Positions 7,943-41,876 of a stretch of DNA of 64,000 nucleotides are shown piece by piece (position 1 is the first letter of the stretch; each line of letters starts with the position of its first letter). A model generated the notes under the pieces. That model was not told the DNA's origin and did no database searches. It worked only from the letters and a program-made list of their open reading frames with translations. The stretch is from an uncultured Opitutia bacterium. GTDB lineage: Bacteria; Verrucomicrobiota; Verrucomicrobiia; Opitutales; CAJWYM01. The DNA is taken from assembly GCA_913049555.1 (NCBI GenBank), contig CAJWYM010000005.1, positions 6,719-70,718 of the forward strand, written 5' to 3'. The translations under genes and the position numbers were made by a program.

Positions 7943-8310
7943 TTTATCTTCTTTACGATCGAAGTGATCACCCCCCAAATTTCATTGTCTTGGTAGAGCT
8001 CATTAGGATTCGGTTGTGATTGTGAGGAAGCGTCAAATACCATGATTTTAAACTCACCATTTCTGCAAAGAACAACTAGATCGTTTTTGCTTGGAATCAC
8101 TTGCCTATCTACAATCAATATTTCATCCTTAGAAATACCAATGGACTTTCTATCGACACCAGATCTAAAGTAAAATGTGGACTGAGGATGCTTGATAAGA
8201 ATATCAGAAATACTGAGGGAAGGTTCCATATGATCCTCAGCTGGAGAAGGAAAACCCGCTGGAATTGAATTCTCTATATTAATATTTAAAATGGGATCAA
8301 AAGCTAACAT
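7939..8310 (-). CDS. umuD: UmuD-like S24 peptidase-fold protein (catalytic dyad apparently not conserved)
   Basis: [10 protein letters not shown]...KHPQSTFYF...[10 protein letters not shown]...GEFKI aligns with E. coli UmuD (CGFPSPAADY...QHPSATYFV..GDSM..ISDGDLLIVD...GEFTVKKL). It is translationally coupled to umuC. Confidence 0.75.
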
Positions 8311-9544: not shown

Positions 9545-9668
9545 ATGATAATTTTGAGAATAGCTATCCTTTAATAAATTACAAATAGTAAACCCCCTGA
9601 GCCACAGGATTGTTTTTTCATGTTGGATTAATATCTACGTTTTGAAAGTTTAAAAAGTGATTCAATCG

Positions 9669-10028
9669 ATGAAAAATTGGTATCTCTATATGATCCGATG
9701 TAAAAACGGTTCTCTATATACTGGAATTACCATAGATGTGAATCGAAGATTTTATGAGCATCAATTTGATCTCAAGAAGGGAGCAAAATACTTAAGAGGA
9801 AAAGGTCCGATTCATTTAGTTTGGCAGTATACAGTTGGGACAAAATCGAATGCAGCGAAAATGGAGTATCAATTAAAACGAAAGTCAAAAGCTTTTAAGG
9901 AGCGATTGATTGCAAATCAATCGAATCTTTACATGGAGAATTGGATTTTAGATATAAATAAGGGATTGCCCAAAAAAGATCTTGATAAAAAGGGATTGAA
10001 GGAGAACCTTGAAATCAAGGCTCACTAA
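9669..10028 (+). CDS. GIY-YIG nuclease superfamily protein (UPF0213-like) with a Lys-rich C-terminal tail
   Basis: WYLYMIRCKNGSLYTGITIDVNRRFYEHQ...GAKYLRGKGP matches the GIY-YIG motif. I preferred ATG 9669 over GTG 9657. Confidence 0.75.
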   Translation: MKNWYLYMIRCKNGSLYTGITIDVNRRFYEHQFDLKKGAKYLRGKGPIHLVWQYTVGTKSNAAKMEYQLKRKSKAFKERLIANQSNLYMENWILDINKGLPKKDLDKKGLKENLEIKAH

Positions 10029-10161: not shown

Positions 10162-10204
10162 AAGATCCCTACATAAAAATTCGAATTTGAGTTTCATTTC
10201 CTTG

Positions 10205-13200
10205 TTAAGGGGTGACTCGTTTGTCCTCTTCAATGCTTTTTCTAGATACAAGGATTGTGGCTACATCCTCTTGAGGAACAGGAATCGTATTCAAATAAAG
10301 TTGGATATTGATCAGTAAATCCACTCGGATCTCTTCACTGGTAGACCTTTCTGTCGATTGAGGCAATCTACCAGCAAGTTGTTCTCTACCAGTGTAAACT
10401 TCTCCATCGCTGTTGATATGCATAACAACATCCTTGTCAGTGACCTCCGCTTTGTTAGCCGTCTTTTTTTCATTTTCATTATTCAAATCAAAAGAACTGG
10501 CCTTAGACAAAACATTGTCATCTTCCTCTTCTTCAATCAACTCCAAGTCCTCTTCCTCTTCCTCTTCCTCTTCTTGAATACTGACATATATTTGTTTGCT
10601 GCTGTAGACCTCATTGTATCTTCCATCAAAATCTCCTTTTTCATTCAGGTATTCCTCAGACTCTTCATTGTCAGTCAAATAGTACGGTCCATTCATTTTT
10701 TCTTTGCTTTTATATTTAGGAAAGTCAAAAGACCCAAAACGGAAACCCGGTGCGTATGGATCCGACCCTAGACTGGTTATATCCCTTGGACTTCCAGTCA
10801 TTGAGGGTAATATCACATCCGCAGGATCGACAAGGAGTAGCTTTTCCCAATAGAAACCACTCCCCCCTACAGGATCGATAGGATAAGACACACCATAAAG
10901 TTGGAAATCTCCCAACAAGCCCCCGAGATCCGCAAAGTATTCAGCATAAACAACCCATCTGGAATCCGTATCAAAGACACTCGCTCCAGCATAATTATAA
11001 AATTGCCCGCCTTGGCCCTGAAGAAGAATATCGTTGCCAGCACCGCTTGTTTTAATATTCAGACCACTGGATAATTTCAAGTCTCCGACTGTTCTAATAG
11101 TAACATCATTGGCGGTATTTCCAGTATTTATATCTCCGTCAATTGTGAGACCTCCTTGGCTGTCAAACAGATTTAGGGCACCTCCTCTTGAGACAGACCC
11201 CAATCGATTCAATTGATTGTTTGAATTTCCTAGGGCAATACTACCCCCAGAATCAACTGTAAGATTCTCACTGGTCAATCCATCTGTTTGGCTCACATCC
11301 GAGCCAGACTTCAAGCTCAGGGTTCCTCCAACATTTGTTTTACCCAAAGAAATACGATTGCTTGCATCTAGGTTCATATCCGTTCCCACGATACTCGTGT
11401 CCGTTGTTATGGATCCTCCTGAATTCGCATTTAGGGTTCCAGACACGGACGTTATTCCTAAATTCAAGTCATTGATATCCTTAAGATCAAAATCGGCACT
11501 GCTAATGAGATCTACCGTTCCCTGGAAATCATTGTTTTTTGTTGTCAAATCCGTTTTTATACCCCCATTAATATGGGTAAGCTCAGATTGGCCACTGACT
11601 GTCAAGTTCACTGCCTGATTGATTCCTGCAGCGGTAACTTTAAGGTTATTGACCAATAAGTCTCCTCCAGCCTCAGTTCCATTTAAACTCAAAGTAGAAT
11701 TGTCGAATACTGTGAGATCATTGGATGAAAGGAGAGTGTAATAAACTTCGTCTGAAAAGTTATTTCCTGAATAGCCCAGATCGATGTGGTCCCCATTAGC
11801 AACCCCAGCGACAAAGTAGCTTTTACCGCTGGATAGTATGGATCCACTGTTAGAGATTGAATTGCCAGCTGTGATTCTTAGTTCAGCTGAACTTACGGAT
11901 TGGGTGACTCCAGCTATATTTACATGATCCAAATCGATTACTTGAATATTTCCAGAACTAGAGTTGGACAAGCTTAGCGAGGCTACAGTCGTCTCAATCC
12001 AGTCACTGGAACCAATTCCTGTGGCAGCAGAGGCAGAGTAATTTCCAGTAGTCAGTATATTGTTGGCGGCACCATTGCCATCAATAATACTATTTGAGGA
12101 TGACTGAGTTAGGATTTGACCCGAGCCATTGCTTGAAAGAGTGTCTACTCTTATGTCTCCATCCGCGTAGGCTAAGATTCCTCCCGTTCCACTGTTTGAA
12201 ATCAACAAATCTCCGTTGACCGAATCATTTTTTAAATCTAAAACCTGGGAACCATCCAAGCTAGAATCTGAGTCTGCGGTCAGGATAAAATTGCCCGAAG
12301 AAGAAGTAAAACTGTAATCCATTGTCAATCTTACATTTGCAGTGGCACTGATGTTAATATTTCCACTGGCAGAAGTGATTCCATCGTTGATAATAATATT
12401 ATTTCCTCCAGCCCCTCCAGAAGACAAATAAATAATCCCAGAGTCCACAGTTTCGACGAGAGTCAGAGTTCCGCCGCTAGAGTCGTCCACTGTCAAAACA
12501 CCATTTGTGGTCGCTAGATCTATATTCCCTGATGTAGACTGTTTTGCATTCAAAACAGTGACTGCATCGGATTCCTGAATTTCAATATTGCCAGAGGTTC
12601 CATTCAAAAGGTTCAATATGTCTACGGACGTTTCCAGTTTATTTCCACTTCCGATTCCAGTCTCAGCAAGAATCTTTAAAGTTCCGGATGTATTTATCTC
12701 CAAGTCACTGTCTCCCCCATCAATCACTGCCGCATCCGTTGTGATTAAAATGGACTCTGTTTGAGGAGCCGAAACTGCATTATTGTTGGTAGAAATAAGA
12801 CCTCCTAATGTGATATTGCCAGCGTTCGATCCCGTAGCAGTCAGGTTGATTTTACCACTGCCTGCATTTACAACGGATCCATCCGACATGCTGATTCCAT
12901 CCCCTGAATCTCCATCTGTGACAGCGGTATTGGAGGTGACTGTAACATTTCCGGAACCTGTCGTAGTATAATCCCCCGCTGCCGTAAAGCTTACTGCATC
13001 GTCAGCAGTTATGGTTAAGGTTCCAGTGGAGGTGTTTAGGAGGGCTGCTTGTATATTGACATCGCTGTTTTGACCATCTGCATTCAATGTAATCGCAGCA
13101 TTCACAGCACTGATTCCTGATTGACCACTAGAAACAGTAATCGAGCCGGTAGTAGATTGGACGCTAATATTTCCACCATTGACTGTGTTGAATGCTCGAT

Positions 13201-16200
13201 CGATTGATACATCATCAGTCTCTACAATTTCAATGTGATTGCTTCCTGTATTGTCCAAATCTAGACTGTTGGCGGTTGTTTCAAGAGCGTTGCCACTTCC
13301 TACTCCGCTGATAGCATCTATAACAATTCGACCACTTGTTACAATATCAACATCCGTATCTCCTCCATCCACCACTCCTGACTGATCAGAAGTAATTGTT
13401 ACGGATGTATTAGTAGTGTTGGTAGTAGTCAAACCACCCAGCGTGATATCCCCAGCATTTGAACCTGATGAAAGAAAAGTAATGGTTCCACTTCCCGAAT
13501 CAATGACTGCTCCATCTGACATTGTGATTTTATCCCCTGAATCTCCATCAGTGACAGCGGTATTAGAAGTAAGTGAAATATCACCCGAACCCGTTCCAGA
13601 GATATCTCCGGCTGAGGCCAATAATATGCTATCATCAGCGGTCAATAGAATGGATCCTGATCCAGTATTTAGAATGCTACTATTAATATTAAGGTCTGAA
13701 TTTAAGCCGTTTGCATCCAGAGAAATGGACCCCTCTGCAGATACAATCGAGACCCCGTTTGTAATCGATCCATTTGTAGTACTCAAAGATACAGTGCCAC
13801 TTCCTGATGAAGTAATAGTCCCAGTATTAGCAGTAGTAATTGCTCCATCTGATGATAATGTAATGGCACTCCCTGTTCCGAGAGAACCAGTTCCATTTCC
13901 AGTTCCAACTACTGAACTCAAGGCAGCGTTCACTGTCATTGCATGAGTATCATCGGATCCTGTATCTCCAGTTGTAATGCTTATATTACCAGAATGACCT
14001 CCATTGCCATTGCCCCCAGTCGAATTTCCACCATTCGCACTGAATGGAACTCCAATAATTAGGCTATTGTCAGAGGTATTGACCGTTATAGAACCAGCAT
14101 TACTTCCATTGCCTGAATTATTACCAGCACCATCCGTTGTAATATCCCCAAGTAAAGTTATGCTGCCCGTGTTCCTAGCAAGTATACTGACATTTCCTGA
14201 AGCAGTTCCTGTGTCACTATTGGCCGTTGTTAAAAGATCACCATCAGCTGATGAACTAAAATTCCCTCCAGAATTTAAATTTACGTTTCCTCCCTTTGTG
14301 GTTACAACATTGCTCAACGCTAAAGTATTTGCGAGCAAAGATCCATTATCAATGGTTACAGCACCTGTCCCTGATGTTATAATTCCACTTCCTCCACTTG
14401 CAGAACTTAAAACAGTGGTAACACCATTAGAAGTGATCGAAACGTTGCTATCCCCCGCCTGAGACACCTTTACTACATCCAGCGCATCTGTCTCAACCAT
14501 CTGAATCGCTCCCAGAGAAGTGTTTGTCAAATCGATGCTAGGCAAAGTGGTTTCAATGGCATCACTCACCCCAAAACCAGTAGTAGAGTTGACAACGAGA
14601 CGACCCGGAGAAACCACATCTACATAGGTATCACCCCCATCAAGTACAGCCGCTCCGGTTGACAATTCAATGGAGCTTGTGGATGAATCCGTAGTTGTTA
14701 AACCGCCAAGAGTAATATTTCCACCGTGGGTGCCAGTAGATAATAAGTCGATTGTTCCACTGCCAGCATCTATCAAAGAATCATCAGTCATACTTATCAC
14801 ATTGCTGGAATCTCCAGAGGCACTATTGACATTCGCAGTAATAGAAATGTCTCCAGTAACAGTGGTGATGTCTGAAGCGGCAGTAAATAGGATACTGTCA
14901 TCCGCATTTAGAGTTATGTTTCCGGAACTTGCATTGGAAGCTTGGACTCCGACATCGATATCAGAATTGATTCCATTAGCATCTAGGACTATATTCCCAC
15001 CAGTTCCAGTAGCCCCCTCTCTAAATTGGATGCTTGAAGTCATGGTTCCACCGCCTGAAGAAGTCACAACTAGGTTGTCCAAAGTATAGGGTGTGCCAGG
15101 AGAAAGTGATTTGATGTAAAGAAATTTACCATAATTAATAGCAGTCACTGCACTATTGACATTGGCATCCGCGTTGATTGCAGTTTCAAGAGCATCAGCA
15201 ACCTGCAAGTTGGCATCAGAAGCGGATAAAGGTTCTGATGAAATTGTGAACCCATTAATTTCGACCGCAAAGGTATCTCCGTCAGTAAGTGTTCCATTAG
15301 AAATTGTAATACTGTCCTCTTGAAGTCCTTGAATAAGAGAGATTGAGGCATCAGAAAGTGAAGAGCCCTGATTTGTCTGGATAGCAATTTCACCACTGGA
15401 ATTTTGATTGTTTATTTGAGATACGTTCAATGCATCCACTTCATCGATCGCAATGTGGTTGGAGGTGAAATTGATGGCATCTAACTCTGTTATCTGGGTC
15501 TCAATCGCATTTCCAGATCCAATCCCATCCAAAGCCTTCACAATCAACTTTCCAGCATTGCCACCGGAACCATCAGAAACATTGATGGTGGTCGAGTTGT
15601 TATCAATCAAGGCCCCATTGATATTGAGATAAATTTCGCCCGTATTGGAGATCTGATTGAGATTCATGTCTGAATCTTCAATTATACTCACTTTGTTACT
15701 TGCTGCAGTCACACCCAGGGTTCCAAAATTGGTTGTTTTAGTGGTATTCTGCTGAACATTGCCATACTCACTAGATCCTAACACGATTTCTCCAGTTCCA
15801 GTAGATGACAAGGTAGCATCTGAAACCACATTGATAAAAGTGGACTCACTATTCAATGTCCTATCGCTTATTCCCCCGGAGGCATTCTCAAAATTAAAAT
15901 TACCCCCAGCATCCACATGTTTTAAAAGACTTTTACTCCCATCATAAACATCCACATTCCTTCCTACAAAACTGATATTTTGTTGAAAACTATTGGCCGT
16001 GTTCGTTAGTGTAATATCCTTGCTTGTATTTTGAGTGCGAAAGGAAGTCACACCGTTAGCAATCAAGCCACTAGTTTGAATGATATTACCCGGATTGATA
16101 GCTGGACCTGTAAGCGGAAGAGAATCTGCAGTATCGGTTGTAATAGAAATATTCCCATCAAAATCATTGTCAGCATGCGACAAAACAATTGCATCTCCCG

Positions 16201-19200
16201 ACAATTTAGAGTTAGCAAAACTACTGGCTGAAGAAACAGAAACCACGACCAAATCCGCAGTGACAGTGTGGGTTCCGGAATCAAGATCCTTTGAAATGTT
16301 CTGGGATTCGAGATCGATTAAATTATTCAATTCATGCGTTAAATTGATATCTGCTCCATCTGATTTTCTGATAACGATATTATGAGTACCCTCAGAGCTC
16401 GCGCTGTAGCCTCCCTGATAGAGAGTGGTGTCCGCTTGCTCATAAACATCTCCAGTGGCAACCAGTGAGGTATCTCCATGCACAAGTATCGTGGCTCCGC
16501 TCACAGAGGCATAGTCACCTGTCGTAGTCACACTGAAGTCTCCTCCGATTGTTGAAGTGTCCAAATAGGTGTCCGTCGAATCCCTTAATTCAACATTACC
16601 CTTACCAGTTGACCCAGCGGTATTGATTGTAGTTGTTTGATTTACGGTGATTCCTTGCATTTGCGTTACAGGGATTCCAGCTGTAGGTCCCGTAGTGAGA
16701 GAAAAACTTCCACCGACTGAAGAAGCAGAACCATTGCCGATGACAAAGCTGTTGGCATCTACATAAGTAGCGTTTGCAGATCCAGAGGTGCGAATACGAT
16801 TTTCCCCTTGAAAATCATTGATTGTTCCCTCAAGGCTGATTCCTCCACCATTGCCATTGATATCTGAATTTCCATAAACCACCAATTCCCAAGTGTCACT
16901 ATCTTGACTAAACCCCAAGGAATCCACCACCAGATCTCTCACTATTAGATTATGCTTCAACTCAATGGCAGTAGTATCTGTAATACTAATATTATCCTCA
17001 AAATCAAAATTGGTAAAAGTGATGTCGTTATTGAATTTATTTGTAGAAAAATCCAAGATTAGATCATGACTACTGGTATCAAAGGTGGATGTTCCTGAAA
17101 CTCTTATTTCATTGTCGTCTGTCATGTCGCCATTAGAAGTAGCAACCAAATTTCCACCAATAAGCGTTGTATTACTTAAAGATAAGTTTAAAGTCCCATT
17201 ACTATCTACTGTCAAATCATTGGAAGTTGTAGATCCACCACTTCCACTTAAAGTCAAAGCATTGGTATCCCGAATACTTACTACTTGCCCACTATTAATA
17301 GTTACATCAGAAAAATCATTGTATTGATTGTCTAAGGTTATATCTCCGGTGCCGCCCAATAAGATCAAATCTTGATTTCCAGTAATCCCTGAATCACTTT
17401 GAGTTATATTTCCAGAACCTGTATCTGTGCTAAGGGTTGTGACACCAGTCATCGATGAGGTTCCAAAAGATAGATTTGTATCGGTCGTCCCAACGGTTCC
17501 AATCAAATTATTACTAGAGGATGCTGAAGCTGTAAGCCCTCCTATGAATGTGATTGAATCTTCTGTAGTATTATTGAAAGTAACAGTTCCTGTATTCTGC
17601 AAAGTAGTCGCATCACTGATCGTTGAAGTTTGATTGCCAGAGGAGCTATTGAAGCTAAGATTATAATCTTGAGATGTAGTATTAAGGGTATTAGCAGTCA
17701 ATGCACCCTGAAAATCAATAGTTCCAGTAGTGTCCGTCAGGGTCACTGTAGATGCATCCACAGTGCTACTGAAAGTAGTTCCTCCTGATTGTGTGACCGT
17801 AACAGTCCCAAAACCCGTTCCAATAGTTCCTACCGAAACTGTTCCCGTGTTGTTGATTGTTAGATTTGATTCGGTCCCACTTACGCTCGTGACATCTATG
17901 TTGCCACTGGATCCATTCCCAACCGTGAAGGTTACTCCGTTAGACAATGAGGAAGCCCCTACATCGATCGTTCCACTCCCTCCATTCAATGTGGTGTCTG
18001 CTGTTATATTTACAGCTCCTATATCGATTTGCTGATCCGTTGCTAAGATTGTACCTGCAAGATTTTCTGTGGACCCCGCTGTTGTATCCAATCCCCCAGT
18101 AAATTCAGTGCTGTCTCCAGATCCGTCCCCTATTGTAATCGTTCCCGTATTGTTAAAAGTTGTGTCTGTAGTGATCGCTCCTCCTCCTGTCATCGATACA
18201 TCGTATCCTCGACTGAATGTGGTCAAAGTATTTGCCGTCACTGATCCTGCCAAACTAACAGATCCAGTAGCCCCCGCATTGTCTTCCTGTAAAGTCAATG
18301 TGCCAATACCCGTTTCAATTGCTCCAGAGACACTGATTGTTCCGCTTCCTGATTCCAAGGTCACGTCTTCTCCAGCGACTCCTGTGATGGATGCAACTGA
18401 AAGATTGCCTCCTCCGGTATTGGATGAATCCAGTGTCAGAGTTTGACCCGATATTAGACTAACCTCTCCCAAAGTAATGTTGTCGTTGGTGCTACTAATC
18501 GTTCCTGCTGCTTTGATCGCTCCTGAATTTGCTGTCACTCCACCATTAAAAGCAATGGTGTCTGCTGAAGCATCCCCAAACTGAGTGGTTCCTGTATTGG
18601 AAAAAGTAGAGGCACTTCCTACAGAATTACTAGACCCCTTAATGGTTACATTAAAAGCGCCACCCGCAGAAACAGTCATTCCAGAGGAGACATTTAAATT
18701 ATCGTTAAAAGCAACGGTTTGTCCATCAACCGTGTCCGTCAGGACAATTGAAGTGCTGCTAACAGAACTTTGAAAAGTTGTATCATTGCTTTGAACTACA
18801 GTTAAGGATCCAAGTGGGGTTGTAGAGCCCACGGCTCCGACAATACTAACGGTTCCCCCTGTACCACTGTTTAATGATAAATTATTGGATCCGTCGATGG
18901 TGCTGGAAAATAAAATATCTCCAGCTCCTGTTGAACCGGAACTCACTTGAGCATTCCCACCCAAAGTGACTTGATTGGAAAAAGTTATATTATCGTTGGA
19001 TGTCGTTATATCTTGGTTCAAATTGATTGTTCCTCCAGATGCCTGAACCCTGAGGGCATTAAAATTCGAACTATTGTTGGAAAAATTCACATTTCCCGAC
19101 CCACCCGCATTTAAAGTGCTCAATCCAGAAACATTTCCTGAATTCGCAGAAGATATATTATCAACTGTGATCGCTCCAGAACCACTGGTATTTAGATTGA

Positions 19201-21733
19201 TGCCGCCCGAACTGGTAATTTTCTGAAGTTCCGCACCACTGATTGAAGTATCCCCAGAAGTATCCCCTAAACCAATGGAGCGATTGTTTGTAGCTGTAAA
19301 ATCAACCGAGCCTGATCCAGCATTGACAGTTCCTGTCAAATTCAAATCGGCTCCAGTCATGGTAATATTTCGATTTTGAGTAGAAACATTGGCCGCCAAA
19401 TTCAAAGTACCACTGCCATCGGAACCATTCGCATCCGCTCGCAAAGCAATTGTGCCAGTACCAGTGGCAGAAAGATCTGCATTTATATTGATATCATTGC
19501 CTGCATCCAGTTCAACACTGATATTGGAACTACCAGTTGAGGTAGCCAAATCCCATGCATTGGATACGGTAATATCATTGGTCGCTTGCAGGATTATGTT
19601 AGAACCAGAACTGATTCCATTGAAGCTTCCAGTTCCTGCAGAAATATCAAAAACACTGTTTAAACCTGAATCATCAGCAAACAACTCACTCAAATCCGAG
19701 CCCACTGTGAATCCAGTGGTGTTTGCATCCGATCCGTTAGAAATCGTTATATTTAAAGGGTCAAACAAAACATCTCCCCCTCTTCCGATTTCATTTCCAG
19801 CAGATACATCCGCCTGACCTTTAAAATCAAGAAATTCCTTACCAGAGATCTCAGCAAATCCACCATTTCCAAAATCTTTACCGCCTGTAGCGGACAAATT
19901 TCCATAAAAACGGGTGCTTTTATCAGCCCATACTATAATTTCACCACCATCTCCAGATTGAGTCGCATCTGCTTTGATATTTGCACCCATGGAAACAACT
20001 GTTTGATCTGCATTCATAATGGACTTATTTTTGCCTTGATAGTCTCCTCCGATTAGTATTTTACCCCCTTTTTCTAATCCAGAAGCATCTAAAAGGGCAG
20101 ATTCTGTAATGGCTACTTTTTCTCCTAAAACCTGAATTTCTCCCCCAAGATTCGAATAATTTTCATTCGGTGAGGTCGAAGATGCGTCCAAAGTTCCAGC
20201 AACACTGACAATGCCTTTGTTTGCTATTAGTGAAATCCGACCTGTTGTTTCATCAAACTGCACACCTTTGGCTCGGATGATCCCAGTATTGTTGATAGCA
20301 AGTGCGTAAGAATTTCCTCCAACCGCCTGAATCTCAGTAGAAATTGCAGCTTCAATATTACCCATGTTCACAAACTCAGCACTTTCCATCTCGTCTAAAA
20401 TTTGCTTCGCTTTTTCTTCTATACTCAAATCCTCTACTGAGTCCGAAGAACTCTCCTCATTTGTGGAATCAATCACTTTTTTTAATGGTTCTGCAAGAGA
20501 AATTGAGGACCCCAGAGACCCTTTGTAATGTTTGGCTGCAATCCATTCAAATTCTGGTTCTTGAGCCTCTGAATTTAAAATTAGACTGTTCTTAGACTCT
20601 AAATTTGTGTCTGCTTTTACTTCTTCGACTGGCTGATTCTCAAAGTCCTTGGAAATGAATGCACTGTCCTCAAATGAATCCTCTTCAGTCTTCTCATTCT
20701 TTAATCCACTGGATTTAGAAAAATCTTTTTGCACGGTATTGTTATTTTCATTGTCCTTCTGATTTGCATCCGTTTCTCCAATTAAATTGTCAATAAGATC
20801 GGAATTCTTTACAAACTCACTCTCCTCCGATAAATCTTCATCTAAAGCTTCTTCGGCAACCGCCTCTTCAGCAACTGCCTCTTCAGCAACCAACTCACTT
20901 TTTGGATCCAAAGGATCACTCACACCCTCATCTAGCTGTTCACTTTCCTCTACTTTTTTATGAGAATCTGATTTTTCTTCTTTTTCTTCTTCTGGACTGG
21001 ATTCAGATTTTACCTTCTTTTTCTTTTTAATCTTAATAAAGATTCGCTGCTCTCCCGATTCTTTTATTAGCACTTCATCCGATCCAGTTGCAATTCCAAT
21101 GGTTCCATTATGAGCCCCAATGTATCCATGATTTGCAACAGAATGAGCGATTAAAAAAACATCTCCTCCGGTAGCAGAAATAGAACCCAAATTCTTTATA
21201 TTTCCTGAGACATCCCCTTTTTTAAAATGATAATCACCCCCATCCATAAAATCTGAATTGGGTATATTTAAAGTAGATCCAATGAATGAATTTACATTGA
21301 TCCTACCACTTTCTCCAATCAAAATTCCATTTGGGTTGACCAACATTACTTGGCCATTTGCCTCTAGGTTACCATAAATGGAGGAAATATTTCCAGATGT
21401 GACACGGTTTAGAGCTGCACTTCTAGAACTCGGTTGAATAAAACGGGTGGTTTCACCAACAGCTATTGAAAAACGATTCCAATCAATAATTGCTCGATCA
21501 GTCCCCTGATTGATTAGCAGCGAATTTCCCTCATAAGATAGATTTGCTTGTCCTTGCCGAACGATTCCCCCTTGTGGGTTAGCAAAAACAAGTAAAGGAG
21601 AAAAGGTGTAAATTAAGAGTAGAAAAGATAAAAAGACACCAGAAAGCTGGCGACAAAGTGGAAGGGAATATGTCTCCAAAGATTTCGAACAGTTGGCTTT
21701 GTAGGAGCCACCATCGTTGATTGGGTATCGCAT
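10205..21733 (-). CDS. giant (3842 aa) TpsA / filamentous-haemagglutinin-like beta-helical exoprotein
   Basis: There is a long leader, then a TPS secretion domain (NPQGGIVRQGQANL...LINQ.TDRAIIDWNRFSI..GETTRF.QPS..SAALNRVTSG..S.I.G.L.ANGQV.LVNPNGI..G). Further on come the GGFAEISGKEFLDF...GGDVLFDPLNITI motif and thousands of residues of T/S/G/N/D-rich repeats. The ORF is uninterrupted. Confidence 0.85.
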   Translation of the reverse strand: MRYPINDGGSYKANCSKSLETYSLPLCRQLSGVFLSFLLLIYTFSPLLVFANPQGGIVRQGQANLSYEGNSLLINQGTDRAIIDWNRFSIAVGETTRFIQPSSRSAALNRVTSGNISSIYGNLEANGQVMLVNPNGILIGESGRINVNSFIGSTLNIPNSDFMDGGDYHFKKGDVSGNIKNLGSISATGGDVFLIAHSVANHGYIGAHNGTIGIATGSDEVLIKESGEQRIFIKIKKKKKVKSESSPEEEKEEKSDSHKKVEESEQLDEGVSDPLDPKSELVAEEAVAEEAVAEEALDEDLSEESEFVKNSDLIDNLIGETDANQKDNENNNTVQKDFSKSSGLKNEKTEEDSFEDSAFISKDFENQPVEEVKADTNLESKNSLILNSEAQEPEFEWIAAKHYKGSLGSSISLAEPLKKVIDSTNEESSSDSVEDLSIEEKAKQILDEMESAEFVNMGNIEAAISTEIQAVGGNSYALAINNTGIIRAKGVQFDETTGRISLIANKGIVSVAGTLDASSTSPNENYSNLGGEIQVLGEKVAITESALLDASGLEKGGKILIGGDYQGKNKSIMNADQTVVSMGANIKADATQSGDGGEIIVWADKSTRFYGNLSATGGKDFGNGGFAEISGKEFLDFKGQADVSAGNEIGRGGDVLFDPLNITISNGSDANTTGFTVGSDLSELFADDSGLNSVFDISAGTGSFNGISSGSNIILQATNDITVSNAWDLATSTGSSNISVELDAGNDININADLSATGTGTIALRADANGSDGSGTLNLAANVSTQNRNITMTGADLNLTGTVNAGSGSVDFTATNNRSIGLGDTSGDTSISGAELQKITSSGGINLNTSGSGAITVDNISSANSGNVSGLSTLNAGGSGNVNFSNNSSNFNALRVQASGGTINLNQDITTSNDNITFSNQVTLGGNAQVSSGSTGAGDILFSSTIDGSNNLSLNSGTGGTVSIVGAVGSTTPLGSLTVVQSNDTTFQSSVSSTSIVLTDTVDGQTVAFNDNLNVSSGMTVSAGGAFNVTIKGSSNSVGSASTFSNTGTTQFGDASADTIAFNGGVTANSGAIKAAGTISSTNDNITLGEVSLISGQTLTLDSSNTGGGNLSVASITGVAGEDVTLESGSGTISVSGAIETGIGTLTLQEDNAGATGSVSLAGSVTANTLTTFSRGYDVSMTGGGAITTDTTFNNTGTITIGDGSGDSTEFTGGLDTTAGSTENLAGTILATDQQIDIGAVNITADTTLNGGSGTIDVGASSLSNGVTFTVGNGSSGNIDVTSVSGTESNLTINNTGTVSVGTIGTGFGTVTVTQSGGTTFSSTVDASTVTLTDTTGTIDFQGALTANTLNTTSQDYNLSFNSSSGNQTSTISDATTLQNTGTVTFNNTTEDSITFIGGLTASASSSNNLIGTVGTTDTNLSFGTSSMTGVTTLSTDTGSGNITQSDSGITGNQDLILLGGTGDITLDNQYNDFSDVTINSGQVVSIRDTNALTLSGSGGSTTSNDLTVDSNGTLNLSLSNTTLIGGNLVATSNGDMTDDNEIRVSGTSTFDTSSHDLILDFSTNKFNNDITFTNFDFEDNISITDTTAIELKHNLIVRDLVVDSLGFSQDSDTWELVVYGNSDINGNGGGISLEGTINDFQGENRIRTSGSANATYVDANSFVIGNGSASSVGGSFSLTTGPTAGIPVTQMQGITVNQTTTINTAGSTGKGNVELRDSTDTYLDTSTIGGDFSVTTTGDYASVSGATILVHGDTSLVATGDVYEQADTTLYQGGYSASSEGTHNIVIRKSDGADINLTHELNNLIDLESQNISKDLDSGTHTVTADLVVVSVSSASSFANSKLSGDAIVLSHADNDFDGNISITTDTADSLPLTGPAINPGNIIQTSGLIANGVTSFRTQNTSKDITLTNTANSFQQNISFVGRNVDVYDGSKSLLKHVDAGGNFNFENASGGISDRTLNSESTFINVVSDATLSSTGTGEIVLGSSEYGNVQQNTTKTTNFGTLGVTAASNKVSIIEDSDMNLNQISNTGEIYLNINGALIDNNSTTINVSDGSGGNAGKLIVKALDGIGSGNAIETQITELDAINFTSNHIAIDEVDALNVSQINNQNSSGEIAIQTNQGSSLSDASISLIQGLQEDSITISNGTLTDGDTFAVEINGFTISSEPLSASDANLQVADALETAINADANVNSAVTAINYGKFLYIKSLSPGTPYTLDNLVVTSSGGGTMTSSIQFREGATGTGGNIVLDANGINSDIDVGVQASNASSGNITLNADDSILFTAASDITTVTGDISITANVNSASGDSSNVISMTDDSLIDAGSGTIDLLSTGTHGGNITLGGLTTTDSSTSSIELSTGAAVLDGGDTYVDVVSPGRLVVNSTTGFGVSDAIETTLPSIDLTNTSLGAIQMVETDALDVVKVSQAGDSNVSITSNGVTTVLSSASGGSGIITSGTGAVTIDNGSLLANTLALSNVVTTKGGNVNLNSGGNFSSSADGDLLTTANSDTGTASGNVSILARNTGSITLLGDITTDGAGNNSGNGSNAGSITVNTSDNSLIIGVPFSANGGNSTGGNGNGGHSGNISITTGDTGSDDTHAMTVNAALSSVVGTGNGTGSLGTGSAITLSSDGAITTANTGTITSSGSGTVSLSTTNGSITNGVSIVSAEGSISLDANGLNSDLNINSSILNTGSGSILLTADDSILLASAGDISGTGSGDISLTSNTAVTDGDSGDKITMSDGAVIDSGSGTITFLSSGSNAGDITLGGLTTTNTTNTSVTITSDQSGVVDGGDTDVDIVTSGRIVIDAISGVGSGNALETTANSLDLDNTGSNHIEIVETDDVSIDRAFNTVNGGNISVQSTTGSITVSSGQSGISAVNAAITLNADGQNSDVNIQAALLNTSTGTLTITADDAVSFTAAGDYTTTGSGNVTVTSNTAVTDGDSGDGISMSDGSVVNAGSGKINLTATGSNAGNITLGGLISTNNNAVSAPQTESILITTDAAVIDGGDSDLEINTSGTLKILAETGIGSGNKLETSVDILNLLNGTSGNIEIQESDAVTVLNAKQSTSGNIDLATTNGVLTVDDSSGGTLTLVETVDSGIIYLSSGGAGGNNIIINDGITSASGNINISATANVRLTMDYSFTSSSGNFILTADSDSSLDGSQVLDLKNDSVNGDLLISNSGTGGILAYADGDIRVDTLSSNGSGQILTQSSSNSIIDGNGAANNILTTGNYSASAATGIGSSDWIETTVASLSLSNSSSGNIQVIDLDHVNIAGVTQSVSSAELRITAGNSISNSGSILSSGKSYFVAGVANGDHIDLGYSGNNFSDEVYYTLLSSNDLTVFDNSTLSLNGTEAGGDLLVNNLKVTAAGINQAVNLTVSGQSELTHINGGIKTDLTTKNNDFQGTVDLISSADFDLKDINDLNLGITSVSGTLNANSGGSITTDTSIVGTDMNLDASNRISLGKTNVGGTLSLKSGSDVSQTDGLTSENLTVDSGGSIALGNSNNQLNRLGSVSRGGALNLFDSQGGLTIDGDINTGNTANDVTIRTVGDLKLSSGLNIKTSGAGNDILLQGQGGQFYNYAGASVFDTDSRWVVYAEYFADLGGLLGDFQLYGVSYPIDPVGGSGFYWEKLLLVDPADVILPSMTGSPRDITSLGSDPYAPGFRFGSFDFPKYKSKEKMNGPYYLTDNEESEEYLNEKGDFDGRYNEVYSSKQIYVSIQEEEEEEEEDLELIEEEEDDNVLSKASSFDLNNENEKKTANKAEVTDKDVVMHINSDGEVYTGREQLAGRLPQSTERSTSEEIRVDLLINIQLYLNTIPVPQEDVATILVSRKSIEEDKRVTP
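12488..13099 (-). repeat. intragenic ~200-aa repeat unit, copy 3
   Basis: AAITLNADGQNSDVNIQ...SNTAVTDGDSGDGISMSDGSVVNAGSGKINLTATGSNAGNITLGGLIST...GIGSGNKLETSVDILNLLNGTSGNIEIQESDA. It shares a 12-aa identical block (SNTAVTDGDSGD) with copy 2. Confidence 0.65.
13133..13732 (-). repeat. intragenic ~200-aa repeat unit, copy 2
   Basis: GSISLDANGLNSDLNIN...SNTAVTDGDSGDKITMSDGAVIDSGSGTITFLSSGSNAGDITLGGLTTT...GVGSGNALETTANSLDLDNTGSNHIEIVETDD. It is followed after 11 aa by copy 3. Confidence 0.65.
14411..14998 (-). repeat. intragenic ~200-aa repeat unit, copy 1 (within giant exoprotein)
   Basis: Unit pattern: LDANG.NSD.....ADDSI...A.D.....GD(I/V)S(I/L)T....(DG)DS....(I/M)SM(T/S)D....(D/N)(A/S)GSG.I.......GGNITLGGL.T......DGGD...D......GxGSxxAIETT...(I/L)DL.N......(I/M).E.DA. 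The boundaries come from my codon count. Confidence 0.6.
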
Positions 21734-22261
21734 GAAGTGAAATGAAAAGAAAGAGCTTCAGTAGAAACTCATAAAAAAGATACTAAACTTAACATACATT
21801 AAAAATATGTCAAATAAGCTCCATGCTAGCGTTCAGCATAGCTGGATGGAAAATTTTATATTTTTATTTCCTGAAACACATAATTTAAATACAAAGGTTG
21901 CACAAATCACTTGGAAAATAATAAACTATTATTGGTAAATAACATAAAAATATATCCCTTCTAAAAAGTTTCAAATTTTTAAAAAGTGACTATTTTTTAA
22001 AAAAAAACTTCATACAGAAATTTTAAAATAAAATTTTTATACCATTATCAATTAATAGTTAATGGAATATTATTGTTACTCCCTTATAAAATCCTACAAC
22101 GCATTCATCTTTATTACGATCGAATACAAAAAGGGAATTAAAAAGACTCAGAGGAGATTCAGAATGAAAAAGAACGAACCTTCCATTCTAGACCCCCAAA
22201 TTTTCATTCCGTTCAAGGATTGATATAGAAAACGAATGAAATGAGAACTAAAGATTAGGGA

Positions 22262-22398
22262 TAAAAAAATTTGAAAAAATTTTTTGAACGTTTTTTTTAA
22301 TGAGCAGTCTATCATATTGTGAATTTATTTTTTATATTTTATAGTTTATAGTTAAGCAGTTTGTTATGGGCGGGATTAGTTACCCCGCCCTTTTTTTT
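22262..22398 (+). ncRNA. candidate small-RNA transcription unit, copy B; paralogue of 4075..4227
   Basis: It shows the same ordered blocks as copy A (AAAAAAA..TTGAAAAAA..TTGAACGTTTTT, TTATTTTTTATA, TATAGTTTATAG, AGTTTGTTA). It ends in GGGCGGGATTAGTTACCCCGCCC followed by T8, and contains no ORF. Confidence 0.4.
22368..22398 (+). terminator. Rho-independent terminator (GGGCGGG-attagttac-CCCGCCC-TTTTTTTT)
   Basis: A 7-bp all-G/C-rich stem and 9-nt loop are followed immediately by eight T residues on the plus strand. The minus-strand reading lacks a T tract. Confidence 0.7.
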
Positions 22399-22555
22399 GG
22401 ATTGATCGATGATACCCTCATTCGGGTTTTAATTTTTTAGAAAAATAAGTTTTTTCCGTTCTTCATTTCGTATTTTTTTAAATGACCTAATAATCCATTT
22501 TAAGAGTCAAATAATCCATAGGCATCTCAAACATTACTCATATAATTGTAAATCT

Positions 22556-24064
22556 ATGTTGATTTTAAAACCTATTTTCGTTTGTTACAAAAGATTCAGT
22601 CTTCTGATTGGAACCCTCATTTTAGCATTGAGTTTGAATGCTAAGGTGCATGGAAAAAATCCAAATGTTCTGTTTATAGCAGTGGATGATCTCAACGATT
22701 GTATTGAACCATTAGGGGGCCACCCCGACTCAATCACTCCAAATTTCAATCGATTGGCTAAAATGGGAGTGACTTTTGAAAATGCCTTTTGCAATGCGCC
22801 CATTTGCAACCCTTCGAGAGTCAGTCTTCTGACTGGTAGAAGACCCTCTTCAACTGGAGTCTATGGTTTCCAACCAATGCGCGAAGTTTCCTCTTTAAAA
22901 AATGTGGTTACACTGCCTCAACATTTTAAGAATAATGGGTACCATGTGATGGGTTCGGGAAAAATATTCCACGGTTTTGGAGAACCCCATGGACCTGACA
23001 AAAGATCCTTTGATGAGTATGGGCCTTTCAATCCTTCCGGAAAACAAGCTAAAAAAATTTGGGAAGACAGGATACCCGGAACTCAGCTTAGATGGGCAGC
23101 AAAAGAAAACCTTGCAGAAGATCCCTACTTAGATGGAAAAGCAGCAAGGTGGACGGCTGATAAACTGAAAAAGTCCCATGACAAGCCTTTCTTTTTGGCT
23201 TTTGGCATGGTAAAGCCCCATCTTCCATTATACGCCCCAGAAAAGTTTTTCAATCTTTACGAAAAAGAAAATATGACGCTTCCTGTCATCAATAAAAAAG
23301 ATCTCGAAGACCTTGATGGGATGGCAGCGAGTCAACAATCAAAAGGAATTAAAAGAGCCATAAAAGTAGAAGAATTGTCCAAAACCAAAGATTTAGTTCA
23401 TGCTTATCTAGCGACTGTTTCCTACATCGATTCATTGATTGGTGAAGTTTTAGATGCTCTAGAGGAAAGTCCTCACAAAGAAAATACAATAATTGTTCTA
23501 TGGAGTGACCACGGTTACCATATGGGTGAAAAAAACACTTGGAGTAAATCAACACTTTGGGAGGAATCACTTAGAATACCACTATTTCTACATGCTCCAG
23601 GAGTCACACCCATGAATGTCCGATGCAAAAGAACCGTTTCTTTGATTGATCTTTACCCAACCCTCATAGACCTATGCAATTTGCCTAAAATTGAAGTACT
23701 TGAGGGAAGAAGTTTTCTACCGCTGCTTAAAAAAGCAGATCATCCATGGAATTATCCGGCTCTTTCCTGCAATGGGTTGAACAACTTCAGTGTTAGAACT
23801 GAGAATTGGCGTTACTCTAAATATAGAGATGGATCCGAGGAACTGTATGACCACTCCAAAGACCAAAAAGAATGGAGAAATCTAGCGAAAAATCCAGAAT
23901 ACGATTCTGTAAAAAAGGAACTTGCTCAACACATTCCAAAAAAACCCGTGAAAGAGGCCGAGACTCTATGGACTTCCATAAAAGTAAGCACACAAGAAGG
24001 GGGAACTGAGGAAAGAAAAAGAAAGTATCAGGAATTGATTGAAGCCCAGAAAAAACAAAATTGA
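22556..24064 (+). CDS. Cys-type sulfatase (iduronate-2-sulfatase-like), secreted
   Basis: Signal peptide; NVLFIAVDDLND metal-binding start; formylglycine motif CNPSRVSLLTGR; downstream WSDHGYHMGE. Confidence 0.9.
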   Translation: MLILKPIFVCYKRFSLLIGTLILALSLNAKVHGKNPNVLFIAVDDLNDCIEPLGGHPDSITPNFNRLAKMGVTFENAFCNAPICNPSRVSLLTGRRPSSTGVYGFQPMREVSSLKNVVTLPQHFKNNGYHVMGSGKIFHGFGEPHGPDKRSFDEYGPFNPSGKQAKKIWEDRIPGTQLRWAAKENLAEDPYLDGKAARWTADKLKKSHDKPFFLAFGMVKPHLPLYAPEKFFNLYEKENMTLPVINKKDLEDLDGMAASQQSKGIKRAIKVEELSKTKDLVHAYLATVSYIDSLIGEVLDALEESPHKENTIIVLWSDHGYHMGEKNTWSKSTLWEESLRIPLFLHAPGVTPMNVRCKRTVSLIDLYPTLIDLCNLPKIEVLEGRSFLPLLKKADHPWNYPALSCNGLNNFSVRTENWRYSKYRDGSEELYDHSKDQKEWRNLAKNPEYDSVKKELAQHIPKKPVKEAETLWTSIKVSTQEGGTEERKRKYQELIEAQKKQN

Positions 24065-24296: not shown

Positions 24297-25094
24297 TCAA
24301 TCAAAATCAACCAAGATGCGGGTGTAATAGGCAGTGTCTAATTCTTTCAAACCCTCAAGAGGAACATTGTTGTAATGATTGGACAAACCAAAGCGTAAAG
24401 ACCATTTGTCGGTTTTTCCCAAGGGGATATTGATTCCTGAATCCTGCTCCAATAAAAATTCGTCTGTCTCTTCTATGGAGGGGGTGAAAGTAAGTTCATT
24501 CGTCATTTTCCCCCATTCAGCAAACTTCCAGTAATGCTCCAAACTTAAATTCAAACCCCATGCTTTATTCACGGAGTTGTCTTTAAAGTCCTCATACCGG
24601 TAGGAAGCACCTAATTTCCCAGTCAACTTATGATCCTCAACAAACAAAAACCTGTATGCGAAACCCACAGAGGGGACTAGTCTTAGATTCAGTCCCTCAA
24701 AATCGTCCTCTTCCCCATCGATTGATAAATAAATTCCAAATTTATCAAACAGATAACCAGTAAAAGAAGCTCCTAACTTTTTTTCATCAGAAGTCTTAAT
24801 GCTTTCTTGTTTCGCCCGATCGTAGGAAGCATAAATTTTACTACTAGAATCAAGGATTTCTTTTTTTAGAGAGAAACCAAATTGAGTTCCAAATTCATCA
24901 GAATTTCCAGACTTCCCTGTGAGATCCAGATAAGTTGTAAATTTCCAATTCCCAAACATTAATTGCTCGGAGCATTCTCCCACGATAGAGTCTAAACTAC
25001 GAATTTGCGAGAGATGAATCCTCTCATTTTTGTCCCTAGCGAATACGGATAAAAAAGGAATCAATAAGCAGAAAAAAACAGGTAAAAATTTCAT
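24297..25094 (-). CDS. outer-membrane beta-barrel protein, DUF481-like
   Basis: Signal peptide, alternating amphipathic beta-strand pattern, aromatic C-terminal strand (YYTRILVDFD) and GNS motif after the first strands. The family call is from pattern recognition only. Confidence 0.45.
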   Translation of the reverse strand: MKFLPVFFCLLIPFLSVFARDKNERIHLSQIRSLDSIVGECSEQLMFGNWKFTTYLDLTGKSGNSDEFGTQFGFSLKKEILDSSSKIYASYDRAKQESIKTSDEKKLGASFTGYLFDKFGIYLSIDGEEDDFEGLNLRLVPSVGFAYRFLFVEDHKLTGKLGASYRYEDFKDNSVNKAWGLNLSLEHYWKFAEWGKMTNELTFTPSIEETDEFLLEQDSGINIPLGKTDKWSLRFGLSNHYNNVPLEGLKELDTAYYTRILVDFD

Positions 25095-26489: not shown

Positions 26490-26552
26490 ACTGAAACTTA
26501 AGCATATAATAGACCGCATTTAAAATTGTTCAGATTATAAACAATTTAAAAT

Positions 26553-27536: not shown

Positions 27537-27578
27537 CTAAATTTGAATAAAAAAACATTTCATTAAATTCTTAAATCT

Positions 27579-28145: not shown

Positions 28146-28175
28146 GATGCAAAGGTTGATAAAAATAAAGTTTCC

Positions 28176-40070: not shown

Positions 40071-41876
40071 TTACAATTTAGAACGTTTTAATTCCTCAGA
40101 AGTGACTATTAAGTATTCTCCTGAACTTCCTTCAAACTTGTAAGAACTTGAGTTTACTGAAACTGGAATTTCCTTGAAAATAGAGCCCTTCTTAAAAAGA
40201 ACTTTGTATTTTATATCGGTTGGAAACAGCGAACGGTTTAAGGAGATTGAATGTTGTTTTTCACGCAGTTCCAAAACGGGCTCCCCAGTATGCAATTCAT
40301 TCCAATGAGGATTTATGTAGAATCGATCTGGATATACAGTAAATCGAAAAGATTCATTTTCTTCTTTTTCCAGAAAATACAATCCATTGCCACTGTATTC
40401 AATTAGAGAGGAACTCCCGGTTCCTACAATTTTGTCAAAATCTTTGGCTCTTTCAGAGAAATCCTTTGACAATCCATTGCTGTAAATCAATTCGTTCTCA
40501 AAATTAGAATGAGAGTGATTCTCTGGGAAAGACCATTCTGCAAAAGAAAGCCGATCGTCTTGAGGAGAAGTCGTTAGATAAGCACTTCCAACAGGCAGTT
40601 TTTTGAAAACTTGCTTGGCAACCATAAAGGAAGCGGCTTTGTTGGGGGATCCTTTCAAAGAGAATGCATGCGTTCCTCCCCGATGAGTAAAATAACTGGA
40701 GAGTGCATAAGTCCACTGGGCTGCGATTTGAACTCCTAAAGAACGAAACAGTTTTGCCATTGCAGGATACATATAACCCGTTTGTTGACAGATCGTTTCA
40801 TACTCATAGACCACTTTTACCATTTTTTTAAAACGAGAATCCTTCAAATATCCCAAATAATTCCACTCCTCATAACAACTTTGCAAATAGGGTAGAAAAT
40901 TGGTTCCATCCAAATTCTCCGTATTGGCCCACATAGGGGGTTTCAATTGGTCTTGACCTGGATAGTTACAAAAAGAGATTCCATCTACTTTAGAATCCGC
41001 AATAGCATCATAAACATCCAATTTACCACTGATATTTTTGGGCCAATTTGCATTCCATATCACTGGAATTTCAAGGCCTTCTTCACGAAATAAATCCACC
41101 ATTTCATTTAGATAATTAAGCGTTGCTCGATATCGGTACGCAGAGAAGTCGTCTTTAGATTTTTCGGGATTTTTCTTAGACCATTTCTGAAAACGAATAA
41201 AAGCAGGTTCATTGATAGGCTCAACCAAGGCTAGAGATTCAGTTTCTTTATAAAGAATGTTGGAATAAGGGTTGGTGCGGTTTAAAAGTTGACGAATGAA
41301 GTTCTTGGAAGCTCTTACAGTTTCTAGATCATAAATCCAATCCTCCCTAGGTTTGGTGGAAAAAGAATCGGCGATCGGCCGAAATTGAGTCCCCTCATGG
41401 GCGAGTTCATTGATAAAAGTCAAATAGACATAGAAGCCTCGATTGGTGGCTTGAGAAATTGTATAATCCAACATATCTAACCATATATTTTGAACCAGAT
41501 TCCCGTCTCTATCCGAAAAATCTGAGGGAGCCAGATGGATTCGAATCAACTCAGCACCTAACAATTCTATTTCTTCAAAACTCTCATCCGTGGTTTTTTT
41601 TAAGTCTTTGGATCGCAAAGGCATCAAAACCTTTTGATTTTCCATGTAAGCAGCATGTTCGAAACTTAAACTTGGCTGGAAATTAATCCCAAATAGATTC
41701 ACCTTAGACCCATCCTCGTAAAAAAGAGTCCCTTCTCTAGCAAATATTTTTAGAAAATTACCCTTGCCATTTAAATCTGTAAGATTTACCAAAATGAACC
41801 CTATAAAAGCCAATTTGTAGAATAAAATGGGTATATTAAACATTCCTGATAGGAAATTTTTAAAAATGAAATTCAT
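40071..41876 (-). CDS. clan GH-A (GH5-like) TIM-barrel glycoside hydrolase, signal-anchored
   Basis: ELIRIHLAPSDFSDRDGN...WLDMLDYTISQATNRGFYVY, LVEPINEPAF, VYEYETI. It is collinear with 36028..38439 over the catalytic and C-terminal beta-sandwich-like regions. Confidence 0.6.
   Translation of the reverse strand: MNFIFKNFLSGMFNIPILFYKLAFIGFILVNLTDLNGKGNFLKIFAREGTLFYEDGSKVNLFGINFQPSLSFEHAAYMENQKVLMPLRSKDLKKTTDESFEEIELLGAELIRIHLAPSDFSDRDGNLVQNIWLDMLDYTISQATNRGFYVYLTFINELAHEGTQFRPIADSFSTKPREDWIYDLETVRASKNFIRQLLNRTNPYSNILYKETESLALVEPINEPAFIRFQKWSKKNPEKSKDDFSAYRYRATLNYLNEMVDLFREEGLEIPVIWNANWPKNISGKLDVYDAIADSKVDGISFCNYPGQDQLKPPMWANTENLDGTNFLPYLQSCYEEWNYLGYLKDSRFKKMVKVVYEYETICQQTGYMYPAMAKLFRSLGVQIAAQWTYALSSYFTHRGGTHAFSLKGSPNKAASFMVAKQVFKKLPVGSAYLTTSPQDDRLSFAEWSFPENHSHSNFENELIYSNGLSKDFSERAKDFDKIVGTGSSSLIEYSGNGLYFLEKEENESFRFTVYPDRFYINPHWNELHTGEPVLELREKQHSISLNRSLFPTDIKYKVLFKKGSIFKEIPVSVNSSSYKFEGSSGEYLIVTSEELKRSKL

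Follow-up and report, generated by a model that had tools for sequence, protein, structure and literature searches.

Proteins exported by two-partner secretion (TPS; type Vb secretion) are usually encoded in an operon with their transporter, tpsA with tpsB, but this linkage is not universal (PMC5422565). In Bordetella, the transporter FhaC exports FhaB, FhaL, and FhaS, and in Neisseria TpsB2 exports several TpsA proteins (PMC10449530; PMC5422565). The gene for the secreted adhesin EtpA adjoins the transporter gene etpB, as etpBA (PMC10284417). The locus analysed here lies in a 64,000-nucleotide stretch of contig CAJWYM010000005.1 from an uncultured Opitutia bacterium, referred to below as the window. 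It contains a giant gene, here called tpsA, which an earlier note on the same DNA had interpreted as encoding a TpsA exoprotein with no TpsB gene beside it. This interpretation is supported: each feature of a TpsA passenger that was tested for, in the sequence and in the predicted fold, was found. The product is probably a genuine TpsA of type Vb secretion, a giant acidic surface adhesin that would depend for its export on Sec and on a TpsB encoded at an unlinked site.

Reading frame and leader of the tpsA product

The tpsA open reading frame (ORF) occupies window positions 10205..21733 on the minus strand and comprises 3842 codons from an ATG start, with zero internal stops. At 11529 bases it takes up 18.0% of the 64000-base window, in agreement with the single uninterrupted 11.5-kb frame covering 18% of the window that had been described previously. 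Serine, glycine, threonine, asparagine, and aspartate together account for 54% of the residues, and the mature chain has a computed mass of ∼385 kDa and a pI of ∼4.05. The only cysteines in the protein are residues 15 and 27, which confirms that the chain is cysteine-free after the two cysteines of its leader; given a cysteine content of 1.2% in the other ORFs of the window, the probability of a 3815-residue stretch without cysteine is ∼7e-21. Cysteine depletion is common to the relatives of the protein (0.12% across 83 related TpsA ORFs). A Pfam scan of the whole protein returned DUF5649 repeats as the sole matches, and no record of the exact 3842-residue protein was found in a look-up. The N-terminal part of the gene can be divided as follows.

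21581..21733, minus strand: N-terminal leader and predicted Sec signal peptide (residues 1-51; hydropathy, AlphaFold, and alignment)
21029..21580, minus strand: core TPS secretion domain with NPNG at 133-136 and no NPNL (residues 52-235; PF05860, TIGR01901, and fold)
20369..21028, minus strand: lineage-specific insertion splitting the N-terminal β-helix (residues 236-455; alignment, spacing, and model confidence)
19625..20368, minus strand: resumed N-terminal β-helix of the EtpA/HMW1 type (residues 456-703; motifs GNSYALAIN, IGGDYQGKN, and GGFAEISGK)

The leader begins with an n-region of 30 residues, which holds both cysteines, followed by a hydrophobic core at approximately residues 31-48 in the hydropathy profile; the AlphaFold model has a helix at residues 26-44. 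Cleavage is predicted after VFA and before NPQGG, and relatives share the pattern ..A/NPxGG at the equivalent position. On this evidence, a Sec signal peptide would precede the TPS domain. The leader had previously been called extended, and it does span 51 residues when counted from the ATG. However, the ESPR motif (PF13018) present in some TpsA relatives had no match in residues 1-320 at E ≤ 0.01, and the length hinges on initiation at the ATG of codon 1 rather than at an alternative TTG at codon 19, which would give a signal peptide of ordinary length.

TPS domain and N-terminal β-helix

When the N-terminal 320 residues were searched in isolation, PF05860 matched residues 52-222 with a score of 106.4 bits (E 3e-30; profile positions 4-180 of 252; cut-off 33.5), and the NCBIfam model TIGR01901 scored 72.9 bits on the TpsA protein against a cut-off of 29.1. 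The TPS domain proposed in the earlier note is therefore recognized by domain models with scores far above both cut-offs. The closest relatives in a phmmer search of the Protein Data Bank (PDB) were EtpA (E 5.6e-51), the HMW1 pro-piece (6.7e-37), and then HxuA. An AlphaFold model of residues 1-720, based on an alignment of 81 sequences, predicts a β-helix in which the predicted local distance difference test score (pLDDT) is >90 over residues 50-240 and 450-660 and reaches 92-98 in the TPS core. Foldseek matched this model to EtpA (8cpk; TM score 0.90, E 2e-23) and HMW1 (2odl; TM score 0.88), with further matches to HxuA, HpmA, and, more weakly, FHA.

Within the NPNG motif, Asn-133 and Gly-136 are invariant across the 81 aligned sequences. 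The NPNL motif was not found in the TpsA sequence; it is likewise missing from EtpA, HMW1, and HxuA (PMC10284417). On the basis of its motifs and predicted fold, the protein is assigned to the EtpA/HMW1/HxuA subclass, in which NPNG is present and NPNL is absent. In a second strain (the JGI strain), a JGI contig contains the complete gene in the same position, between flanks that are 98.3% identical, and in comparison with this copy the ratio of nonsynonymous to synonymous substitution rates (dN/dS) in the TPS domain is 0.24.

The domain had been described as textbook. Such a description fits the domain models and the fold match, but not the continuity of the N-terminal β-helix, which is split by a 215-residue insertion. 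The insertion opens with KKKKKVK, is then strongly acidic (net charge −37), and is predicted to be disordered (pLDDT <50 for residues 250-414), with two short helices at its end. It is missing from all 16 of the 16 aligned relatives, and the spacing from NPNG to YALAIN is 340 residues here as against 110-139 residues in 100 of 102 relatives. An exhaustive HMMER search with the insertion against 1.84 billion representative sequences returned two near-identical fragments and nothing else, and in the JGI strain it is conserved at 97.7%. Beyond the insertion the helix resumes: a second phmmer domain aligns residues 468-703 to residues 276-502 of EtpA, and residues 456-703 are modelled with pLDDT >90, their glycine columns being nearly invariant among relatives. 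A marine-type relative with a partial sequence from JGI (P0013) carries, at this same position, an insertion that is alike in style but shows no significant similarity in sequence, and the upstream flank of P0013 is also without a TpsB gene.

Search for a transporter gene at the locus

The flanks of tpsA consist of the following elements, in accord with their earlier description as an AT-rich region with a divergent sulfatase gene on one side and a convergent GIY-YIG gene on the other.

9657..10028, plus strand: convergent GIY-YIG gene, 176 bp past the tpsA stop codon (PF01541, 61.6 bits)
21734..22555, no strand assigned: intergenic region of 822 bp and 26% GC (guanine plus cytosine) between tpsA and the divergent sulfatase gene, defined by composition
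22556..24064, plus strand: divergent sulfatase gene, a flank only, kept in all strain contigs (PF00884, 168 bits)

The GIY-YIG gene is a flanking gene and neither an immunity gene nor a transporter gene. The 822-bp region presumably holds the promoters of both tpsA and the sulfatase gene; promoter-like sites in it were no commoner than in shuffled sequence, and promoter and terminator scans of the flanks gave nothing above background. No Rfam family was matched in the region at E ≤ 0.1, and no TpsB remnant was detected there with the hidden Markov model (HMM) described below.

No ShlB, POTRA_2, or Omp85 domain was found by Pfam in the 42 window ORFs of at least 150 residues. A TpsB HMM was then constructed from the transporter beside a relative (L002 14980-16866) and 29 homologues from related loci; this model scores true TpsB proteins, proteobacterial ones included, at 720-790 bits. 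When it was run with the --max option against every stop-to-stop segment of the window of at least 25 residues, the best E value was 1.6, and a tblastn search of the window for TpsB was also negative. In strain contigs that continue for 3.7 kb past the start of the window, the one additional gene encodes an M16-type peptidase, and there is no TpsB. The same tpsA flanks occur in TARA, ENA, JGI, and Logan assemblies; the TpsB-free span at the locus comprises 10 kb downstream and 42 kb upstream of tpsA, together with the same flanks in at least four independent strain assemblies. The absence of a TpsB gene adjoining tpsA, as first noticed by reading the sequence, is thereby corroborated.

Two candidates for an unrecognized transporter were rejected. 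The DUF481 protein encoded at 24297..25094 was considered as a surrogate translocator, but it is a 265-residue barrel without POTRA domains and gave no signal with the TpsB HMM. The ORFs at 36028..38439 and 40071..41876 were considered as divergent TpsB genes; neither matched the TpsB HMM, nor did any NCBIfam model score above threshold. A metagenome scan with the TPS domain yielded two distant relatives only, and no paralogue from the same species.

Gene order in related loci

The best match to the TPS domain among GTDB representatives has 57% identity, and the closest relatives lie at 48-57%. Gene neighbourhoods were compared across GTDB genomes, nearly all of them metagenome-assembled genomes (MAGs) of Verrucomicrobiota; of the 79 related loci, 35 were assessable. 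An adjacent TpsB gene on the same strand was present in 33 of the 35 (directly downstream in 29 and upstream in 4), in line with the earlier statement that TpsA genes normally adjoin their TpsB partner. Thus, this TPS family uses TpsB. The two loci without it (L032 and L040) are both from one Verrucomicrobium MAG, which also has a TpsB-linked locus (L057), and orphan copies therefore occur within the family. The orphan layout is atypical or rare in this family (∼6%), but it has precedents.

The MAG in question, Verrucomicrobium sp. HJP_bin11, has at least four TPS-domain loci (L032, L040, L057, and L086), with an adjacent TpsB at L057 only; at L032 and L040 no TpsB lies within 5-10 kb on either side. 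It offers a natural case in which to test whether one transporter serves several passengers. In some Verrucomicrobiota relatives, two TPS-domain genes stand in tandem on the same strand (L001/L041 5638-10464 and L065). On the 143-kb contig of the relative P0006, a compact CRISPR-Cas module (L002 2642-6868) lies ∼3 kb upstream of the tpsA-tpsB pair and encodes a Cas12-like protein of 721 residues (C2c1 RuvC-like/Cas12f1-like TNB), a Cas4-Cas1 fusion, and Cas2.

Strain variation and assembly of the shaft

Two regions of the shaft were delimited by comparison with the JGI contig and by comparison of the protein with itself.

16820..20115, minus strand: strain-variable shaft cassette (residues ∼540-1638, bounds approximate; blastn and tblastn against the JGI contig)
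12314..15076, minus strand: three diverged shaft-module copies (residues ∼2220-3140; windowed self-blastp)

In the JGI strain the cassette is replaced by a different sequence of ∼5.6 kb, and the gene is accordingly 14.1 kb long rather than 11.5 kb. Nucleotide identity per 150-nucleotide window is ∼93-100% over residues 1 to ∼540 and 1639-3842 (single windows at 89% and 85%), whereas it falls to ∼65% over residues ∼540-632, and residues 633-1638 cannot be aligned at the DNA level. Across the cassette edges, synonymous divergence (dS) from the JGI copy reaches 0.78 (residues 404-817) and 0.33 (residues 1465-1948), as compared with 0.03-0.07 for the conserved N- and C-terminal regions, a difference that points to allelic replacement by recombination. 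The dN/dS ratio remains below 1 throughout (0.23-0.64; 0.5 in the conserved shaft). All alignable indels are multiples of 3 except four 1-nucleotide insertions. Given that umuDC and the GIY-YIG gene on the same JGI contig likewise contain 1-nucleotide indels, error and decay are indistinguishable as causes of the tpsA frameshifts; decay in that strain and assembly error are equally possible.

Independent short-read contigs cover both ends of the gene. Two of them (L009 and L010) are 99.7-99.8% identical over window positions 10202-15052 (residues 2227-3842), the C-terminal tail included, and two others (L006 and L007) stop at residues 501 and 528 (window 20229/20148-21733 covered). All four (99.7-99.9% identical) are gapless across the gene parts that they cover. 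The breakpoints at 20148 and 20229 fall where the strain-variable cassette begins. The TARA and ERZ27286503 short-read assemblies, which are independent, both stop exactly at position 15052. This breakpoint (residue 2227) differs from the JGI cassette boundary (residue 1639), and further allele variants thus probably exist. Among the assemblies compared, no independent contig supports residues ∼540-1638.

The three shaft-module copies share 36-50% amino acid identity and lie ∼210-420 residues apart, and weaker protein repeats (32-36% identity by self-blastp) were detected in residues ∼910-1470. At the DNA level, by contrast with the earlier label of a repeat-rich ORF, the gene is without tandem or dispersed repeats: none was found by TRF or by a repeat finder, and self-blastn gave one weak match (71% over 181 nucleotides). 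Repeat collapse is therefore unlikely, and as an assembly artefact it was rejected on these three DNA-level searches. The earlier worry that repeats had been misassembled is largely removed, although residues ∼540-1638 are without support from an independent contig. Exchange of shaft cassettes between strains shows how such surface proteins diversify and explains why metagenome assemblies break inside genes of this kind.

C-terminal region

The C-terminal end of the protein comprises two parts.

10799..11452, minus strand: last β-helical module with RWVVYAEYF..GGL (residues 3428-3645; phmmer and DUF5649 repeats)
10205..10798, minus strand: C-terminal tail with a poly-Glu tract (residues 3646-3842 and stop codon)

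Residues 3428-3645 matched the end of another Verrucomicrobiota TpsA, that of locus L071, by phmmer (its residues 1329-1565; E 2e-15), and motifs akin to the RWVVYAEYF module, RFLIYS and RYLVYS, occur in the C termini of the relatives P0001 and P0008. The tail has no Pfam family beyond DUF5649 and no PDB match. A search with the C-terminal 442 residues against a database of 5.8 billion sequences gave no match, a result in which the poly-Glu tract probably swamped the candidate step. A single-sequence AlphaFold model gave no confident fold for the tail (pLDDT 41 for the model and <40 for the tail).

Proposed export route and alternative explanations

In the proposed route, the signal peptide would take the cysteine-free, unfolded chain through Sec, and the TPS domain (residues 52-235) would dock on the two POTRA domains of a TpsB, an Omp85-type protein whose gene would lie at another site of the genome. 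The chain would then thread the TpsB barrel and, once outside, adopt the form of a very long right-handed β-helix, which may act as a surface fibre or adhesin and whose central shaft would be swapped between strains by recombination. A role as a dominant surface or adhesion structure of the organism, as proposed in the earlier note, is something that we infer. Two observations favour an unlinked TpsB over a different way of export: purifying selection acts on the TPS domain between strains (dN/dS 0.24), and orphan TpsA proteins with a distant TpsB are documented (PMC10449530; PMC5422565). Three points weigh against the proposal. No TpsB gene is present in the 64-kb window or in the strain contigs, so that the partner has to be assumed; the frame of the JGI copy is broken by four 1-nucleotide insertions (window positions 15915, 20510, 20904, and 20915), which split the gene into five ORFs; and an insertion within the N-terminal helix is unprecedented among solved TPS domains.

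The first two of these points could also be read as signs of a decaying or silent relic whose cognate TpsB has been lost, whose export has ceased, and which is a pseudogene in the making. Such decay is improbable: chance cannot account for the survival of an intact 11.5-kb frame, dN/dS is low both in the TPS domain and in the conserved shaft (0.24 and 0.5), the four nearly identical short-read contigs are gapless where they cover the gene, and the JGI contig has 1-nucleotide indels in other genes too. It is also very unlikely that the TPS-like N terminus merely nucleates the β-helix and that the protein leaves the cell independently of TpsB, through another Omp85-family protein or by lysis or vesicles. 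The lack of a local TpsB would fit such a route, as would the unusual charged insertion of 215 residues directly after the TPS core, but the protein has kept the TPS motifs that recognition by TpsB requires, and all close relatives pair with a TpsB. Furthermore, an RTX motif of the type I secretion kind (GG.G.D) and a PEP-CTERM-like hydrophobic C terminus are both absent from the protein, and no other translocator gene lies nearby, the DUF481 product being a small barrel without POTRA domains. With an unlinked TpsB retained as the preferred route, the insertion itself might be a functional adaptation of type Vb secretion, either a flexible tether that holds the TPS core at an unlinked and shared TpsB as the fibre takes shape outside or a processing or retention module, so that orphan TpsA proteins bearing such insertions would constitute a distinct pathway variant in marine Verrucomicrobiota; this idea is hardly probable.

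Two further explanations concern the middle and the end of the protein. The central third (residues ∼540-1638, possibly to 2227) could be a chimeric join of co-occurring strain alleles, in which case the exact 3842-residue sequence would occur in no single cell. Consistent with this, short-read contigs from two samples end at residues 501, 528, and 2227, the only other full-length copy (JGI) has a different and longer cassette, and residues ∼540-1638 are spanned by no independent contig. The reading frame is nevertheless unbroken over both junctions and there are no DNA repeats to drive collapse, such that a chimera is judged unlikely; it would in any case leave the identity of the gene unchanged. 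Finally, a giant TpsA whose C-terminal ∼200 residues lack homologues invites comparison with CdiA-like toxin-delivery proteins of contact-dependent inhibition (CDI), as opposed to adhesins. Here, however, neither a pretoxin motif (VENN, ELYN, NEALV, DAMV, or LYVN) nor a Pfam toxin domain was found in TpsA, the downstream GIY-YIG gene is convergent and so there is no co-oriented immunity gene, and the C terminus is conserved between strains (99.7-99.8% over window positions 10202-15052; residues 1932-3842 are 96.9% identical to JGI). What varies is the central shaft, the reverse of what is seen in CDI. Given the lack of a VENN-type motif and of a co-oriented downstream gene, together with the strain-conserved end, a CDI toxin role is extremely unlikely.

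Host and other genes of the window

Window proteins have exact matches on NCBI, TARA, ENA, JGI, and Logan contigs, and the nearest named relatives of the ParC-like protein are from marine Verrucomicrobiota (TMED44 and others; 62-64% identity). The window contains at least four sulfatase genes and three MFS sugar transporter genes. The host belongs to a lineage of marine Verrucomicrobiota that is abundant but uncultured and that degrades sulfated polysaccharides; attachment to particles or algae is a plausible role for an acidic fibre of ∼385 kDa.

A 7.6-kb segment at 25182-32829 is missing from two JGI contigs (L099 and L100) of a 98%-identical strain, in which DUF481 runs directly into MFS genes; the segment is a strain-specific indel. 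It contains a LacI regulator gene and a nitrogen-starvation cluster of the Sll0783/MSMEG_0572 type (AIRS, GNAT, Pyr_redox_3, radical SAM, CN hydrolase, and TIGR04044). The adjacent region, 32842-43890, resembles a polysaccharide-utilisation locus, with two MFS_2 sugar transporters and two sulfatases, and also holds the two ORFs mentioned above (803 and 601 residues), which belong to no Pfam or NCBIfam family. A cluster for nonulosonic acid of the pseudaminic-acid type follows at 43914-48190 (NeuB/PseI, a PseG-like Glyco_tran_28_C protein, a DegT aminotransferase, and a Polysacc_synt_2 dehydratase). On the other side of tpsA, a 196-residue protein encoded at 4432-5022 matches the phospholipid scramblase family PF03803 (E 1.6e-44), a mainly eukaryotic family, and is present in all strain contigs. 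A umuD-umuC pair at 6701-8310 (S24 peptidase and IMS Y-family polymerase) is separated from the 3′ end of tpsA by ∼2 kb, in which the GIY-YIG and AhpC genes lie; on the JGI contig, a 1-nucleotide insertion at window position 7972 joins umuD and umuC into a single ORF of 536 residues.

Comparison with known systems

Among solved structures, EtpA of enterotoxigenic E. coli (PDB 8cpk and 8vba/8vbb) is the best match to the protein in both sequence and fold. The two share NPNG without NPNL and an extended N-terminal β-helix with GGDxQG and GGxxExS, followed by a long repetitive β-helical shaft. They differ in length (about 1.7-1.8 thousand residues in EtpA and 3842 here), in the presence of a TpsB gene beside the EtpA gene and of none in this window, and in the ∼40 residues that EtpA has where the present protein carries the 215-residue disordered insertion. 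The etpC gene, part of the etpBAC locus, encodes a glycosyltransferase. No glycosyltransferase of the HMW1C/EtpC type was found among the window ORFs of at least 150 residues; the sole glycosyltransferase match in the window is the Glyco_tran_28_C gene, which belongs to the pseudaminic-acid cluster and lies 22 kb from tpsA. TpsA shows no enrichment of NxS/T sequons (101 found, 87 expected), and HMW1-like N-glycosylation, which was also considered, is unsupported in the absence of sequon enrichment and of a linked glycosyltransferase. HMW1 of non-typeable Haemophilus influenzae (PDB 2odl) is of the same TPS subclass (E 6.7e-37, TM score 0.88), but the hmw1ABC operon that encodes it also supplies its TpsB and a glycosyltransferase (PMC5422565), and the window has neither.

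Closest in sequence, and alike in architecture, are the Verrucomicrobiota proteins annotated as filamentous hemagglutinin N-terminal domain-containing proteins (P0001, P0003, P0008, and L020-L098), which share the DUF5649 repeats, the cysteine depletion, and, in part, a C-terminal RxLxYS module; unlike the present gene, they have an adjacent TpsB in 33 of 35 assessable loci, and 100 of 102 lack the insertion. In gene layout, the nearest parallels are FhaS and FhaL of Bordetella and the orphan TpsA proteins of Neisseria meningitidis, whose genes likewise stand without an adjacent tpsB and which use a distant transporter (PMC10449530; PMC5422565). These, however, are proteobacterial proteins of the FHA-type TPS subclass with a known shared TpsB, whereas here a TpsB is inferred. 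This kind of TpsA is well known, and a non-adjacent transporter gene is already known from other bacteria; current understanding is not overturned. The locus would nonetheless add one more well-documented case of type Vb secretion from beyond the Proteobacteria, and its orphan layout and TPS-region insertion provide useful test cases for the specificity of recognition between TpsB and TpsA.

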